From a virus: DNA of 64,000 nucleotides. The stretch is taken from the IMG/VR virus record IMGVR_UViG_3300023504_000391, positions 51,299-115,298 of that record. One strand, written 5' to 3'. The translations under genes were made by a program, and so were the position numbers. Below the pieces are notes generated by a model that was not told the DNA's origin, ran no database searches, and saw nothing but the letters and a program-made list of their open reading frames with translations. This document shows, piece after piece, positions 5,357 through 52,100 of the stretch. How positions within the stretch are numbered: position 1 is the first letter of the stretch; each line of letters begins with the position of its first letter.

Positions 5357-5682
5357 ATGACAGTATTATCTGAAATGCTTACTGGAATGGGTAGTAAATT
5401 TATTTTAGCAAAGTATAGCGATACTTTCTATGGTTATGGAACAGAAATGGATCATAAAGATGTATGGGGGGACTTCCAGTAAATCAATGTGGAACTAAAG
5501 AAGAAGTTTTGGAAAATTGTTTGCGAATGATAGAAGTCAATAAAGAATATATACAGAAATATCAGAAAGAATTTGAAAAAGAGAAAAGGAAACCTGAAGG
5601 TTGGAAAATACTTCTTTATTGTGAACAGAAAGAACTTGAAATGCATACAGCGTTTGCAAGAATTTTAAAAGAAATGGAGTGA
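5357..5682 (+). pseudogene. hypothetical protein split by a frameshift at a G6 homopolymer (5466-5471); pieces 5357..5482 and 5464..5682
   Basis: ATG 5357 with RBS GGTGA. One extra G in the run GGGGGG would fuse the 41-aa and 72-aa reading frames into about 112 aa. Confidence 0.45.
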
Positions 5683-7955: not shown

Positions 7956-8195
7956 ATGAAAATTATTAAAGAAAGCATTATCAAGAAACATTCATATGAA
8001 AATGGAGTTCATACTTCTTATACAGAAGTGATAGAACAGTACCATTATGATTCAGAAGAGGAGCGTAATAAACATGCAGAACAAATGACTGAAAAAGGAT
8101 TTAAAGATAGTGGTCAGGTTAAAGAAAATGTTGGTACGATTATGAATCCAGAATTTGTATGGTTCGGAAGCTATTATAGATGCAAGAAAGATTAA
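7956..8195 (+). CDS. hypothetical protein
   Basis: GTAAGGAGTG RBS. Confidence 0.55.
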   Translation: MKIIKESIIKKHSYENGVHTSYTEVIEQYHYDSEEERNKHAEQMTEKGFKDSGQVKENVGTIMNPEFVWFGSYYRCKKD

Positions 8196-8238
8196 CTTTA
8201 AAACAAGAGTTTCTTTAGATGATTGGAGGTAGATTTAT

Positions 8239-8601
8239 ATGGAAAGTAGATATAAGAAAAATCGTGGATATACTTATGGAAGTATGATTGTAACTCAAGA
8301 TGATACGACCGTATCAGAATTAACAGAAGGTGTATTTCACGAATGGAATGATAAATTAGAAATCATGGGTGTTATTTGTGATTTTTATGATTATTCATGG
8401 AGATTTTATCCTGATGGACGATTAGTATTATCAGATTTTTTAAACGAAGATTCAGAATGGAGAGGAGAAAACGATTATGGTCATTTTGAGTATCAATCTT
8501 TAGATGAAATGTTACTTGATTGGATGGACGAATTAGAAAAGAATGAAAGTGAAGAGAAATTTGACGAAGAGATAGAATTTATTAAACGTATGAAACGATG
8601 A
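8239..8601 (+). CDS. hypothetical acidic protein
   Basis: TTGGAGG RBS. Confidence 0.6.
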   Translation: MESRYKKNRGYTYGSMIVTQDDTTVSELTEGVFHEWNDKLEIMGVICDFYDYSWRFYPDGRLVLSDFLNEDSEWRGENDYGHFEYQSLDEMLLDWMDELEKNESEEKFDEEIEFIKRMKR

Positions 8602-8635
8602 TTTAGATAACTTTTTATTTAAAGAGGTGAAGTAA

Positions 8636-9058
8636 ATGAAAATAACTATTACTTATAAATTATATACTGATGGCGATTACTGGCTGCGAAATGCTGATAA
8701 ATTTGGCTGTACGGATAAAGAAGTGATAATAGATGATGATGAATATTATGATTTTATTGATTTTGATAAGGGAATATCAATACCTAGTCGTAGTTATTAT
8801 GATTATATCGGTTCAGTAGAATTTATAGACAAAGAAAATTGGATTTGTAAAGATGATGCAAAAGATTTTCTGTGGGAGTTTTTATGCGATGGTATACATA
8901 TATCATATACTCATTATTGGTTGCTTGAAATGTTTTATAAAGTTATGGAGTCCTTAACAGAATTTATTGATAATTACAAATCTGGAACATCCGTATCTAA
9001 AAAATATTTACAAGGAAATTGGAGAAATACAGAAATTAAAGTTGAAATAACAGAATAA
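8636..9058 (+). CDS. hypothetical protein
   Basis: AAGAGGTG RBS. Confidence 0.6.
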   Translation: MKITITYKLYTDGDYWLRNADKFGCTDKEVIIDDDEYYDFIDFDKGISIPSRSYYDYIGSVEFIDKENWICKDDAKDFLWEFLCDGIHISYTHYWLLEMFYKVMESLTEFIDNYKSGTSVSKKYLQGNWRNTEIKVEITE

Positions 9059-18282: not shown

Positions 18283-18312
18283 GAGAACTTATAGAGGATG
18301 GAGGTGAAAAAG

Positions 18313-19488
18313 ATGATAAAAACAATTCGAGTAATGTTACTTCCAAATAACAAGCAAAAGACTAAACTTTTCCAATATGCTAATACTGCCAGATTTGCTT
18401 ATAATTGGGCTTTAAGTAGAGAAAAAGAAAACTATAAAAATGGTGGCAAGTTCATATTTGATGGAGATTTGAGAAAAGAATTTACACAGTTGAAGAAAAC
18501 TGATAAATATTCTTGGTTAAATAAAATCTCTAATAATGTAACAAAACAAGCAATTAAAGATGCTTGTAACGCATATAAGAGATTTTTCAATGGATATTCA
18601 AAAGTTCCTAAGTTTAAAAGCCGTAAGAAATCAACACCATCTTTTTATCAAGATAATGTAAAAATTCAATTTTCTGATACTCATTTAAAAGTTGAAGGAT
18701 TTACAACTTCTAAAAAGAAGGATAAACAGAAATTAAATTGGATTAGACTTGCAGAACATAATAGAATACCTACAGATTGTAAATACACGAATCCTCGTAT
18801 CAAATATGATGGATTAAACTGGTATCTTACAGTGGGTATTGAATACAAAGACTCTACTATTGTCCCATCCAATGAAGGAATTGGAATAGATTTAGGAATT
18901 AAAGATTTAGCAATATGTTCTGATGGTAATAAATATCAAAACATTAACAAGACACAAAGAGTTAAGAAGTTAGAAAAACAAAAACGCAGGTTACAGCGTT
19001 CTATATCCAGAAAATATGGAAAAAATAAGAAAGGAGAAAGTTACTGTAAAACAAAGAATGTAATCAAAAAGGAAAAACTTTTATTAAAATTAAATCATAG
19101 ACTAACAAACATTCGTCAGAACTACATACATCATATAACTTCAGAGATTATAAAACGAGAACCAAGTTTTATTGTGTTAGAAGATTTGAATGTAAGTGGA
19201 ATGATGAAGAATAGGCATTTATCCAAAGCAGTACAACAACAAGGATTTTATGAAATTAGACGACAAATTGAATATAAGTCTGTTTGGAATAATATTTTAG
19301 TAATCATTGTAGACAGATTCTTTCCAAGTTCTAAATTATGTAGTTGTTGTGGAACAATCAAGAAAGATTTAAGTTTATCAGACCGTATTTACAGATGTGA
19401 ATGTGGAAATGTAATTGACAGAGACTATCAAGCATCTTTAAATCTAAAACGATATGGAGAAAATGTTTTAAAACAATCTGTAGTATAA
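18313..19488 (+). CDS. tnpB: TnpB (IS605 OrfB family; RuvC-like nuclease with C-terminal zinc ribbon)
   Basis: GIDLGIKDLA (Asp), FIVLEDLNVSGMMKN (Glu), VIDRDYQASLNL (Asp) plus CSCCG...CECGN zinc ribbon; ATG 18313 after a GGAGGTG RBS. Confidence 0.85.
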   Translation: MIKTIRVMLLPNNKQKTKLFQYANTARFAYNWALSREKENYKNGGKFIFDGDLRKEFTQLKKTDKYSWLNKISNNVTKQAIKDACNAYKRFFNGYSKVPKFKSRKKSTPSFYQDNVKIQFSDTHLKVEGFTTSKKKDKQKLNWIRLAEHNRIPTDCKYTNPRIKYDGLNWYLTVGIEYKDSTIVPSNEGIGIDLGIKDLAICSDGNKYQNINKTQRVKKLEKQKRRLQRSISRKYGKNKKGESYCKTKNVIKKEKLLLKLNHRLTNIRQNYIHHITSEIIKREPSFIVLEDLNVSGMMKNRHLSKAVQQQGFYEIRRQIEYKSVWNNILVIIVDRFFPSSKLCSCCGTIKKDLSLSDRIYRCECGNVIDRDYQASLNLKRYGENVLKQSVV

Positions 19489-19640
19489 CACAATCAAGTT
19501 ATCACAGATATGTACTGATTCGTTAGTCAGGAATTTACGCCTATGGAGAGTACAAGAACTTGTAAGTAGAGGGTTGCAAGCAACCCTCAAAAGCATACTC
19601 ATAGAAGTAGGAATGAAACATAAAAGATAAAATAATTATA
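19400..19640 (+). ncRNA. candidate TnpB guide RNA (omega-RNA) spanning the tnpB 3' end and downstream region
   Basis: Non-coding, relatively GC-rich stretch directly after tnpB containing a perfect 9-bp stem GAGGGTTGC-AA-GCAACCCTC (19569-19588). Confidence 0.35.
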
Positions 19641-33822: not shown

Positions 33823-33894
33823 TAGGGCTATCGCCAAGCGGTAAGGCACAGGGTTTTGATCTCTGCATCCATCGGTTCGAATCCGATTAGCCCT
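33823..33894 (+). tRNA. tRNA-Gln (anticodon UUG), CCA not encoded
   Basis: Manual cloverleaf: acceptor AGGGCTA/TAGCCCT, D-arm GCC-AAGCGGTAA-GGC, anticodon stem CAGGG/CTCTG with loop TTTTGAT, T-arm ATCGG-TTCGAAT-CCGAT. Confidence 0.8.
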
Positions 33895-33925
33895 GTTATT
33901 TACAGTAAGAAAGGAGAATAAGAAA

Positions 33926-37135: not shown

Positions 37136-37824
37136 AAAGAGAATAGTTAATTAGAAGTTATTCATTGTTTACCGAAAACTTTAAACTACAACTCATCAGT
37201 CTTTTGCAGATATAGACTTATGTAAAACTGAAAAGAAATCTGTAGCTATTAAGTATTGTGTGATACATATTACCCAAACTTAAAATTTGGTAGAAATAAA
37301 ACATATAGAATATACAATTAATTATTACTTCGATATTTCGAGTATGTTCTGTAAAGTTTAAAGCTATAAAACTTAAACAATAACGCTAAAAACTCAAAGT
37401 TTTTATTATGAGTCAAAGTTAAAAGAGTAAACAGCAAAGATATAAAGATTTATCAAATCCTTGATATACAGTTTAGCATAGTTGTATTTGGCTATAAGCA
37501 CCTGCAAGGCTGGTAAATGGTGAATAATTTTATATAAAATTTTGAATGCTTAATGGAGTGTTTAAAAATACTCCCGCTTTCTTTTCTAATTTTTATTTTA
37601 ACCTATACTGATATAGGGTGGGTATTTAAGTGTGATAGACTTAAATATTCCATTAAACATTCAAATAAATGTTTGGATGAAATATAGATTTCAAAGGAGA
37701 ATTAAATGATAAGAGAAGATTAAACGAATTTAATTTATGTATGTTCGCATTACAGAAGAATTACGGTACAGGAGATAAAATATAAGCATGATACATTTTG
37801 AAGAATTTTAAAAGAGGTGGTTGT

Positions 37825-39249: not shown

Positions 39250-39362
39250 GACTCATTCGAGTTACAATTTCCAATAAAAATGAAAATCGAATAGAGAATA
39301 AATTATAGAAAGGATATAGGTTTTCTTGCAAGATAAACAACGTTGTACCTTTCTAAAGAAAA

Positions 39363-39883
39363 ATGATTAATAGTAAAGAAGTTTTATATAGTAAAGGAAA
39401 TAATGATGAATGTATAACTCCTGCTTATGGAGTAGAGCCTATTATCAAATATATCCCTAATGGGGGGTAATTTGGTGTCCTTTTGATAAGGAAGATAGTG
39501 AATTTGTGAAGCTAATAAGGAAAGCAGGACATAAAGTAATTGCTACTCATATTGACAACGGACAAGATTTTTATACATATGAACCTAATGAACATTGGGA
39601 TTGTATTGTAAGTAATCCACCGTTTACTAATAAAAGATTAATTTTTGAGAGAGCATTGAGTTTTAACAAACCTTTTGCGTTGATAATGAGTAATACTTGG
39701 CTAAATGATTCTGCTCCTAAACAGTTGTTTAAAGATAAAGATTTACAACTTTTGATGTTTGATAAGAGAATGAAATTTATGAACAATGGAGAAGTTCAAA
39801 ACAAAATAACATTTAGTAGCAGTTATTATTGCTGGAATTTTTTACCTAAACAGATAATTATGGGAGAATTAAAAGACAAATAA
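39363..39883 (+). pseudogene. small N6-adenine DNA methyltransferase interrupted by a 1-nt frameshift at a G6 homopolymer (39462-39467); pieces 39363..39470 and about 39465..39883
   Basis: Upstream piece ..ITPAYGVEPIIKYIPNGG* ; the next frame continues VIWCPFDKEDSEFVK...HWDCIVSNPPFTNKRL (motif IV NPPF). One extra G restores a single roughly 173-aa ORF. Confidence 0.7.
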
Positions 39884-39964
39884 TTGAAAATCGAATAGAG
39901 AATGAGTAACTGAAAGCAGTTCAGTGGATTTCACTGTTTCATGTGGATTTTGAGGAGGTGAGAA

Positions 39965-49143: not shown

Positions 49144-52100
49144 CAATTATCATAAACATGATCATGTCTCTAATATTTTTTCGCCAGATACAAACACCAA
49201 GCAAGAAGAATATATTTTGAAAGCACTTGAATATGGTCATACAAGTTATTATACGACAAACCACGGCTCGTTTGGCGATATATTTGAGGCAAAGACTCTT
49301 TGTAATAAGTACGGTATTAAGTGTATAGCAGGAATTGAAGGATATATTGTACCAGACGCTTCTGAGAAAGATAAAAGGAATTACCATATTATTGTAATTC
49401 CAAAAACTGATGAAGCAAGAAAAAAGATGAATTATGTTTCAAGTATGGCGAATATCAATGGATTTTATTATAAACCAAGATTTTTTATGAAGGATTTACT
49501 TGCTTTGGATAGGGATGATGTGTATATTACAACTGCCTGCGTAGCAGGTCTTTTGAGAGATGAGGATTCAATTGAAAAAATATTTAAGCCATTATTTAAA
49601 CATTTTGGCAATAATGTAATGCTTGAAGTCCAAACTCATCTTGATCCCATTCAGATAGAGATAAACAAAAAAGCTATTTATTTTTCGGATGAATACGGGT
49701 TATCATTGATTGCCGCCAATGATTCCCATTATATTAACGAAGAAGGCAAACAAGAACGTCTTGAATTATTAAAAGGTAAACATATTAATTATGGTAGTGA
49801 GGATGATTTTATTTTAGATTATCCAACTGCTGAGACAATGATAGAGAGATTCAAAAAACAAAATGTTTTGTCAGATAAACAAATTGATGATGCGATTAAT
49901 AATACTCTGATATTTGATAATTGTGAAGAAATCAAACTTGACTATTCTATCAAGATGCCAACCATCTATCCAAATCTTACGCCAAATCAGCGTGTAAAAC
50001 TCCTCAAAAAAGAAATCAACAAGCGATTTAAAGTCATTAGAGAACAAGAAAATATATCTGATGATGATTTTAAAAGATACCGAGATGGTATTCGATATGA
50101 AATGAAAATCATAGAGGATACAAATGATAAAGTTCATACGGCAGATTATTTCCTATTTAATGAGAAAAATGTTGATTTAGCAGTAAATAAATATGGTGGA
50201 GTACTTACAAGAGGTGGAAGAGGTAGCTGTGGTTCTTTTTATATAAATAGAATATTGGGAATGACTCAGCTTGATAGATTTAAAATTAATCTTCCACTTT
50301 TCCCTGATAGATTTGCTTCCACTGCTCGATTATTAGAAAATCGTTCCCTCCCAGATATTGATTTTAATGTTAAAAGTCAAGAGCCATTCGTTAAAGCTTC
50401 AAGAGAATTATTGGGAGAGCATGGTTGTTATCCAATGTATGCACCTGGAACTATGCAGATTTCAGAGGCATTTAGAAATGTATGTCGTTCAAAAGGTATG
50501 GATTTTGATGAATTTAATGATGTAGCAAAAAATCTTGAAGCTTATGAAAATGATGAAAAATGGAAACCAATCATAGAAGAAGCGAATAAATATGTAGGAA
50601 CAATCGTATCTGGTTCAGTACATCCCTGCGCCCACATTCTAAGCGATAAGAATTTATTATACGAATATGGTGTAACTAGGTTAGGAGAAAATCTTTGTGT
50701 ATTAATAACATCATCTGAAGCTGATGAATACAAAGTGCTTAAAAACGACTATCTAATCGTCAAGGTTTGGAAATTAATTGATGAAACGTTTAAAGAGATT
50801 GGAAAACCGATTATTACAGCGAATGAGTTGTTAAAATCTATCAAAGATGATAAGAGAATATGGGATTTATTTAAGAATGGAATAACCTGTACTCTTAATC
50901 AGGTGGATAGCGACAATGGATCGCAACAAGCAAAAAGATATAAAGTGTCCTCATTTGAAGATGGTGCTCACTTAACGGCAGCTATCAGACCATCGTTTGA
51001 CTCATGGAGAGAGCAATTTTTAAATCGAGAAGATTATACAACTGGTTCAGAACAATTGGACGAAGTTTTAAGTGATACACATGGATATATATTATTCCAA
51101 GAGTCTTTAATGCAATATTTTGATTGGCTTGGTGTAACACCTGCTGAGTCTATTGGATTAATCAAAAAGATATCTAAAAAGAAAATAAAACCAGAAGACT
51201 TTGCTAATCTCGAAGAAAGAATCAGAAAACAATGGATAATCAATACTGGTTCAGAGGGTGGGTTTGATACAACTTGGAAAATGATTCAGAGCTGTATGAG
51301 TTATGGATTCTGTAGTGCTCATGCGGCAGCCACATCTCTTGATATGTGTTATGGTGCATATTTAAAGGTTAATTATCCACTTGAATATTACAGTGTATGT
51401 TTCAATAATTACGCAGATGATCAAGTAAGAACAAATAAGCTTAAAAAGGAACTGGATTATTTCAATATCAAATTGAGCGATATTAAATTTAGATACTCAA
51501 CATCAAAATATTCTTACAATAAAGAGAATAATACCATATACAAAGGAATGTCGTCTATTAAGTATATCGGCGATAATGTTGGAGATGATTTGTACACTTT
51601 GAAAGATAAGAAGTACAACGATTTTATAGATTTGCTTATTGATATAAAAAATACTTCTGTTAATTCCAAACAATTAGAGATATTGATTAAATTGAATTTC
51701 TTTTCTGAGTTTGGTGAAATAAATACTCTACTTGCTCAAACAGATTATTTTGATAAGGTGTATGGTAAAAAACAATTCAAGATAGATAAACTTGAAGAAT
51801 TGGGATTACCTAAAGATATTGTTAAATCTCACTGTAAAAAACAAACAGAAAAAATCTGGAAGGATTTTGATTCAATATCGTTGTTAAAAGATATTGTAAA
51901 GAATGTGGATTATAAAGAGACTTCTATTTTAGATATTTTTAATTATCAGCAAGAATTATATGGATATGTGTCTTATACTCAGCCAACAGCTAACAAACGA
52001 CTATATTATGTATCAGACATTAATTCTACGAAATATCTTACAACAATTACTCTATTTGAGATTTATAGTGGTAAGACACGAACAGTCAAAATGTGGACAA

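Follow-up and report, generated by a model that had tools for sequence, protein, structure and literature searches.

Why should the only two runs of six guanines in 64,000 nucleotides of phage DNA lie exactly where one more base would fuse two adjacent reading frames into a single gene? The question is raised by positions 51,299 to 115,298 of the IMG/VR virus record IMGVR_UViG_3300023504_000391, a stretch of 64 kb that is referred to here as the window and numbered from its first letter. One of the runs splits a small hypothetical gene (5357-5682) and the other a gene for a predicted adenine methyltransferase (39363-39883), and the first-pass annotation had offered two explanations for both of them, either homopolymer miscalls in the assembly or slipped-strand switches of phase variation. 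Comparison with related loci indicates that the two sites are not equivalent. The account considered probable here is that the two G6 runs are two outcomes of replication slippage, which would have made the methyltransferase tract a hypermutable switch and left the small gene with a fixed frameshift.

Two runs of six guanines at two frame junctions

The window has a GC content of 30.3% and a purine-rich plus strand, and contains five runs of G5 (at 118, 876, 14218, 36235 and 57311) and exactly two of G6 (5466-5471 and 39462-39467), both on the plus strand; C6 is absent, and no run of C in the whole 64 kb exceeds four. The count of two reported in the first-pass annotation is thus correct, but the rarity that it stressed is only the one predicted by composition, since dinucleotide-preserving shuffles contain 2.68 ± 1.97 such runs, with at least two in 68 of 100 shuffles. 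As for their position, each G6 run is a frame junction where one extra G joins the flanking open reading frames (ORFs). At the first run, 5357..5482 would be joined to 5464..5682 in an ORF of 108 aa, and at the second, 39363..39470 would be joined to the frame ending at 39883 in an ORF of 173 aa. As they stand, the ORF that starts at the ATG at 5357 reads GTA TGG GGG GAC TTC CAG TAA across the run, and the one that starts at the ATG at 39363 reads AAT GGG GGG TAA. A mechanical test asked whether one added base would join a stretch of 35 or more open codons to one of 70 or more, and only 3.2% of the window positions passed it, so that the chance of finding both G6 runs at such junctions is about 1e-3. 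Homologues bear out both junctions as real, with intact ORFs that read across each of them, and this part of the first-pass annotation stands.

Tract length and reading frame in the methyltransferase gene

The length of the methyltransferase tract among relatives was obtained in two ways. Read directly from the DNA of the window and of 34 fetched loci (35 sequences in all), it was G6 in five (the window, L096, L098, L104 and L105), G7 in 12, G8 in ten, G9 in seven and G10 in one (L001, in frame and coding for NGGGV). The second count relied on the exact look-up of the protein predicted for each tract length, where G6 and G9 share the same 125-aa ORF. For a first allele (A), this look-up gave G5 in one contig, G6/G9 in 25, G7 in 16, G8 in 24 and G10 in one, and for a second allele (V, with one A-to-V change), G6/G9 in 17, G7 in six, G8 in 18 and G10 in one; the G5 product of allele V was not found by exact look-up, nor were the products of G4, G11 and G13 where they were looked up. 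Altogether, about 110 independent human-gut metagenome contigs with these two alleles show lengths from G5 to G10 and all three reading frames. The outcomes foreseen at first, either a uniform G7 or a uniform G6, were therefore not the right pair of alternatives for this site, which shows many lengths instead.

Such changes of length are also found on identical backgrounds. After removal of the tract and clustering by 1600 nt of flanking sequence, four haplotype groups contained contigs with identical flanks and different tract lengths (G9 and G7 in three of them, G10 and G8 in the other), and a fifth group, with flanks within 0.5%, contained both G6 and G7. Three groups were aligned over 5.0-6.4 kb (5-9 contigs each, with 18, 12 and 3 substitution columns), and the sole indel in all these alignments is the tract; the same stretches contain 5-9 A/T runs of at least six nucleotides, none of which varies. 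At least five independent changes of tract length without any flanking substitution (the fifth group within 0.5%) would imply a rate hundreds-fold higher than the substitution rate per site. The contigs come from many studies and from three assembly pipelines (metaSPAdes, MEGAHIT and Logan), which rules out an artefact of a single assembly and makes systematic miscalling unlikely. The G6 of the window was itself seen again in four other samples, one of which (L098) belongs to the haplotype group of the window. Samples that exemplify the different lengths are ERZ27236900 (G6), ERZ27259188 (G7), ERZ27243330 (G8) and ERZ27274854 (G9). The assembled contigs thus show that the tract is polymorphic in length, that this polymorphism recurs on identical backgrounds and that the reading frame changes with it: the repeat is hypervariable with respect to the surrounding sequence and, lying within an ORF, sets the frame by its length. 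As far as sequence comparison can tell, the tract has the anatomy and the population signature of a simple sequence repeat (SSR) contingency locus, as described in bacterial phase-variable methyltransferases. For this gene, the slipped-strand switch of the first-pass annotation is supported as hypermutability at the population level, given lengths from G5 to G10, identical flanks and a single indel in 5-6.4 kb, and frequent, reversible switching within a phage or lysogen population would be its presumable consequence.

With G7 or G10 the whole enzyme is encoded (ON), with two or three glycines (NGGV or NGGGV) in a loop of residues 33-36 that the AlphaFold model places between an N-terminal helix (21-28) and strand beta-1 (36-39). 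With G6 or G9 a TAA stop follows directly after the tract, and with G5 or G8 a stop is found a few codons past it (OFF); in G8, where the first product ends after NLVSF, an ATG overlapping the tract then opens an ORF of 141 aa. Gene callers give the downstream part of the window gene as a 125-aa ORF starting at GTG 39506, a product with an exact match in 25 contigs (44 blocks) of the collection, and the 35-aa 5′ ORF was also called in two other samples. The OFF products are devoid of the invariant NDECxTP block (N14-T19), and the 125-aa product also of WCPFD (W38-D42), so they should be inactive. For the two main alleles, the downstream protein of the OFF contigs is identical to that of the ON contigs, and no second lesion is present in about 85 OFF contigs, which suggests that the OFF state is recent or reversible rather than the result of old decay. 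The window, with G6, would be OFF in an otherwise intact gene, one slippage step away from ON.

The fused product of 173 aa matches phrog_799 ('DNA methyltransferase') at 5e-37 and has 4706 homologues, which among the matches listed are almost all of 172-173 aa and unbroken at the junction. Homologues in cultured phages are named 'DNA methyltransferase' by RefSeq, and some GenBank records label members of the family sugar-phosphate nucleotidyltransferase or tRNA methyltransferase. Three blocks of the protein are invariant (N14-D-E-C-x-T19, W38-C-P-F-D42 and S84-N-P-P-F88), the last one including the catalytic motif IV, where N85, P87 and F88 are invariant across 20 aligned homologues and P86 nearly so; this NPPF is the only (D/N/S)PP(Y/F/W) motif in the window ORFs of at least 80 codons. 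An AlphaFold model of moderate quality (pLDDT 67, pTM 0.66) has M.TaqI as its best Foldseek match (E 3e-7, TMq 0.59), followed by PacII, StySJI M (a Type I M subunit, HsdM) and CamA. A sequence-only PDB profile search and an NCBIfam scan gave no meaningful match, and the Pfam cut-offs were missed (Eco57I, 20.5 vs 25.3 bits; MTS, 13.1 vs 23). Some 85 residues follow NPPF, and a separate target-recognition domain was not identified in the protein; a restriction gene is found neither adjacent to the methyltransferase nor linked to it in the window. In any case, because of its NPPF motif IV, the match to phrog_799 and the M.TaqI-like fold, the product is predicted to be a minimal orphan catalytic domain of a gamma-class N6-adenine methyltransferase. 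The family shows about 70% aa identity with the Prochlorococcus phages P-TIM68 and P-SSM2, and 63-78% with elements in genomes of Flavobacteriaceae, Campylobacterales, Bacteroidaceae and Melainabacteria, so that it appears to be unusually conserved across very distant hosts.

At residues 33-37, most family members have K/Q-N/D-A-V-V and no G run, and only a small clade has the configuration AAT-Gn-TA/TG. The loop codons would have become a G run in this phage clade, with a length that would shift far faster than point substitutions occur. Two other homologues carry in-frame runs of their own, a G8 in the same loop in a metagenome-assembled genome (MAG) of Campylobacterota (L150:1096-1103, YIPGGAVVW) and a G7 at codons 11-13 in an IMG/VR contig (L066:3015-3021, LYSPGGNDEC). 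Both seem to have arisen independently, and these small numbers give a hint of recurrence.

Some observations concern the surroundings of the gene. The 14-mer AAAATCGAATAGAG is found exactly twice, at 39283-39296 and 39887-39900, once in each of the intergenic regions that flank the methyltransferase, and could be a promoter or terminator element, or else a cassette boundary; with up to two mismatches allowed, it has three matches, which is not above chance. In close relatives (L001:5015-6106 and 8019-8861; L096 and L116-L121), an adenylosuccinate-synthetase-family protein, perhaps PurZ-like, and a Thg1-family protein are encoded a few kb upstream of the methyltransferase. Should the former be a PurZ, 2-aminoadenine might be present in the phage DNA, with consequences for the substrates open to an adenine methyltransferase. 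Related phages also show a third variable poly-G tract (G7, G8, G9 and G11), in the context CTTCTAAAAT-Gn-AACTATTTGT (L099:459, L103:457, L108:605, L109:607 and L115), about 2.4 kb upstream of the methyltransferase and absent from the window. This tract lies within an ORF-free gap of about 1 kb, and the 100 nt around it match the Y RNA-like YrlA family (RF02553) with 36.4 bits (E 5.5e-6), which falls short of the gathering score of 69. Sequences resembling the T-arm and D-arm of a tRNA are present in this stretch, but ARAGORN called no tRNA at the tract.

The small gene and its phage

The site in the small gene offers a contrast, as its short G run would have undergone a single slippage event that was never reversed. 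For the fused product, 64 homologues of about 107 aa were found, and the W-G-L-P-V-N-Q that all of them show at the junction lacks one of the glycines of the G7 fusion. In the most similar intact allele (L092-L094, 96% aa identity), the sequence is GCA TGG GGA CTT, a run of G4, so the G6 of the window is an expansion by two bases. G4 and G7 are both in frame at 5466-5471, and the intact state is not the seven guanines supposed at first but the four carried by the homologues, which makes the window G6 a +2 change and not a -1 miscall. The 72-aa ORF (P0147; nr DAO32070.1, 'MAG TPA ... Caudoviricetes sp.') is found exactly in 26 contigs (55 blocks), and in 8 of the 8 loci fetched, with neighbour genes that differ, the run is G6 and the 326-nt gene is 100% identical. 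The 41-aa ORF was called in seven of the eight related loci L084-L091, the copy of L091 being cut by the contig end. Exact look-up in about 15 billion proteins gave neither the G4 nor the G7 version of the window's allele. Single Logan contigs have G5 (L178) and, in another lineage, G3 (L177), which could be either real slippage or errors. With a repeat that is not hypervariable, and with G6 invariant in those loci and contigs, the idea of a phase-variation switch is not supported for this gene.

The window gene shows four differences from the nearest intact allele, three of them nonsynonymous and one synonymous. All the invariant residues of the family (G-PVNQCG and C55) lie within the 72-aa piece, which may for this reason keep a residual function. 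Pfam and NCBIfam gave nothing for the product and PHROGs only weak matches, and one nr record names it DUF2856. A G4 run in the W-G codons of W-G-L-P-V-N-Q would have grown by two bases, giving rise to pieces of 41 and 72 aa, and would then have been fixed in the lineage. Most likely, the G6 is a fixed, slippage-derived frameshift in an accessory gene that has probably been inactivated.

Table 1. Position of the two G6 runs and of the gene parts on either side of them (window numbering)
Feature	Position	Strand	Description
Small-gene 5′ fragment	5357..5482	+	41 aa
Small-gene G6 run	5466..5471	+	+2 over the G4 of intact homologues; stable frameshift
Small-gene 3′ fragment	5464..5682	+	72 aa, MGGLPVNQCG...; -1 frame
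Methyltransferase 5′ fragment	39363..39470	+	35 aa, MINSK...IPNGG; TAA right after the tract; holds the invariant NDECxTP block
Methyltransferase poly-G tract	39462..39467	+	G6, apparent OFF state; codons 34-35; putative hypermutable element
Methyltransferase downstream frame	39467..39883	+	V36 to K173 plus stop; -1 frame relative to the 5′ fragment
NPPF catalytic motif IV	39614..39625	+	Residues 85-88

The window codes for a tyrosine integrase, an S24 (LexA/CI-type) repressor on the opposite strand and a DNA polymerase III alpha, together with a DnaB-like helicase, a DHH phosphoesterase, an RNA ligase, a PARG-like protein, a radical-SAM protein and an IS605-type TnpB. On related contigs, YopX and SPbeta YorH domains were called, and the methyltransferase relatives lie on contigs of about 140-160 kb in IMG/VR and, in some cases, on ENA scaffolds of 0.5-1 Mb. 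From this gene content, the domains of the relatives and the sizes of contigs and scaffolds, the source of the window is a large temperate SPbeta-like phage of human-gut Clostridia, often seen integrated. All the close relatives of both loci were obtained via the ENA/Logan protein index, and all come from human-gut metagenomes; among species-representative genomes, the nearest methyltransferase homologues are in MAGs of uncultured Clostridia, Ruminococcus and Acutalibacteraceae. Megablast searches of both loci against 50,697 GenBank phage records gave zero matches, so that no cultured close relative is present there. IMG/VR, GTDB species representatives and JGI metagenomes were scanned for exact patterns of the methyltransferase tract context, and IMG/VR also for that of the small-gene tract, in all cases without a match. 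The window also contains two Rfam matches at gathering level, RAGATH-18 (65.3 bits) at 19540-19613, directly downstream of the IS605-type TnpB gene (18298-19488), and RAGATH-27 (97.4 bits) at 37161-37244, as well as a tRNA-Gln (ttg) at 33823-33896.

Competing explanations and known systems

It seems extremely improbable that the assembly just miscalled both homopolymers, and that the true sequence is intact with G7 at the two sites. Some sequencing chemistries often get the length of homopolymers wrong, and one long-read contig of a sister haplotype (L181, a 1.0-Mb Polypolish contig of the P0213 haplotype) has G6, one G more than nine short-read contigs of the same haplotype, while its neighbouring NAD-dependent DNA ligase gene (L181:4957-6378) is split into 74 aa and 325 aa, compared to 657 aa in the short-read contigs; the extra G and the split ligase are likely residual long-read indel errors. 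However, the G6 of the small gene recurs in 26 contigs and 55 blocks, with an intact state two bases away, and the G6 of the methyltransferase in four other samples, including one of the window's haplotype group. The tract of the latter spans six lengths that recur in independent short-read assemblies, even if G5 and G10 are rare. Since many independent assemblies, made in different studies and with different assemblers, show the same G6 states, miscalls had to be dropped as a general explanation. A very improbable alternative is that the G6 alleles yield full-length proteins by programmed recoding, either through -1 ribosomal frameshifting or through transcriptional slippage. A P-site tRNA-Gly that slipped by -1 on GGG would lead, at either site, to precisely the G7 product, the TAA directly after the methyltransferase run is a context able to favour slippage, and the G6 allele of the small gene is stable and widespread. 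Nevertheless, a zero-frame X XXY YYZ heptamer is absent from both sites (TGG GGG GAC at 5465-5473 and GGG GGG TAA at 39462-39470), where only a P-site slip would be possible, and the predicted folding of the 80 nt that follow each run is no stronger than in shuffles (z of 0.25 and 0.24). The methyltransferase occurs in all three frames, most of its relatives are single ORFs without a G run, and no configuration is conserved; the intact homologues of the small gene are also single ORFs, of 107 aa. Programmed frameshifting was thus rejected at either site, as there is no heptamer, no downstream structure and no conservation.

A last alternative, which we regard as unlikely for the two sites together, is that both genes are ordinary frameshift pseudogenes, and that the variety of methyltransferase lengths reflects the neutral drift of a dead or dying gene. 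It would be favoured by the fixation of the small gene at G6 without any in-frame variant, and by its three nonsynonymous changes against a single synonymous one. On the side of the methyltransferase, the in-frame states (G7 and G10) amount to 24 of 109 contigs, a share at or below the one-third expected from neutral drift, and the P0213 haplotype (L179-L188; 17 contigs and 34 blocks) combines G5 with a stop in the ON frame at the invariant W38 (TGG to TGA), which makes the gene of this lineage irreversibly dead. Against such a decay speak the approximately 85 OFF contigs of the two main alleles, which carry no second lesion and keep the downstream protein of the ON contigs, the reappearance of ON states on several haplotypes, the very strong purifying selection on the methyltransferase family, still about 70% identical in aa across phages of different bacterial phyla, and the G runs that two or more other lineages gained independently in this gene. 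In any case, plain pseudogenisation is the best account of the small gene and of the methyltransferase of the P0213 lineage.

Some of these data also weigh against a switch at the methyltransferase. The proportion of ON contigs offers no sign of selection for this state in the populations sampled, which are mostly lysogens, and the death of the P0213 lineage suggests that the tract may be a mere hotspot on the way to gene loss. The enzyme has no recognisable target-recognition domain and stays under the curated cut-offs of Pfam and NCBIfam, and its substrate may be either DNA or RNA. Moreover, phase variation is defined by heterogeneity within a population, whereas the tract data are assembled consensus contigs, in which the lengths at G9-G10 may carry some error and the variants seen in single contigs (G5 of the methyltransferase, G3 and G5 of the small gene) may be errors too.

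Replication slippage on G runs would then be the one mutational process behind both sites, acting recurrently on the methyltransferase tract and once on the small gene. A plausible benefit of the variable tract would be bet-hedging, as methylated progeny may escape methylation-sensitive restriction and unmethylated progeny may escape methylation-dependent defences, in parallel to the agt contingency locus of phage T2. A stronger version, which we find possible but lean against, is that the temperate gut-Clostridia phages of this clade keep a few poly-G contingency loci, with the methyltransferase tract as a selected ON/OFF switch among them. Such a recurrent and selected design would fit the independent G runs of L150 and L066 and the tract in the YrlA-like RNA. 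If this were the case, a lysogen burst could release both methylated and unmethylated virions, hedging restriction against methylation-dependent defence, and in lysogens the tract could toggle the methylation of the host, acting as a prophage-borne phasevarion. The locus would also extend the idea of contingency loci to a widespread temperate phage of gut Firmicutes and to an epigenetic or anti-restriction gene, with support that comes from natural populations (more than 100 independent metagenomes). In practical terms, a single tract length is no sufficient ground for calling a gene of this kind a pseudogene or for 'correcting' it as an assembly error, and the methylation motifs detected in gut metagenomes may flicker with the tract state of prophages.

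Phase-variable DNA methyltransferases ('phasevarions', either mod or orphan) are familiar from bacterial pathogens, for example Haemophilus, Neisseria and Helicobacter, and poly-G tracts from Campylobacter, whereas homopolymer contingency loci have been argued for phages only recently (T2/T4 and Campylobacter phages). As in the bacterial phase-variable methyltransferases, a G tract early in the ORF of a predicted adenine methyltransferase sets the frame in the window gene, and many lengths are found on otherwise identical alleles. Unlike bacterial phasevarions, the gene belongs to a temperate phage of gut Clostridia and encodes a minimal protein of 173 aa in which a target-recognition domain is not recognisable; nor is a restriction gene linked to it in the window. 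With the M.TaqI-type enzymes of the gamma class, the protein has in common the NPPF motif IV and the class I methyltransferase fold, but it is less than half their size, lacks the C-terminal DNA-recognition domain and shows only 15-16% identity.

Among phages, homopolymer SSR contingency loci have been described in T2 and T4, at agt and rIIA (Gomez, Barrick & Waters, bioRxiv 10.1101/2025.10.21.683753). These are poly-A tracts of lytic coliphages, in which reversion was measured to be about 1000 times as frequent as in a point mutant, and the ON and OFF states of agt trade off McrA/BC against TgvAB (bioRxiv 10.1101/2025.10.21.683753). As in agt, a homopolymer of at least six nucleotides in a phage gene of DNA modification causes a frameshift in the window; in T2/T4 the change is reversible, and bet-hedging has been proposed between defences against modified and unmodified DNA. 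Here, by contrast, the tract is a poly-G one, in a temperate gut phage, and is known from metagenome comparisons alone. A G run inside a phage methylase gene is also a trait of the Bordetella phage BPP-1, a likeness known through citation only (Liu et al. 2004, as cited in bioRxiv 10.1101/2025.10.21.683753). Finally, Campylobacter phages of the Fletchervirus group are described, in the works that cite the original study, as bearing hypermutable tracts of 7-11 G that produce ON/OFF subpopulations (Sorensen et al. 2021, Cell Rep 35:109214, cited in PMC12823448 and in bioRxiv 10.1101/2025.10.21.683753). According to those citing works, these tracts are found in receptor-binding protein genes of lytic phages, unlike the one analysed here, which lies in a predicted methyltransferase gene whose homologues are also carried by Campylobacter phages.

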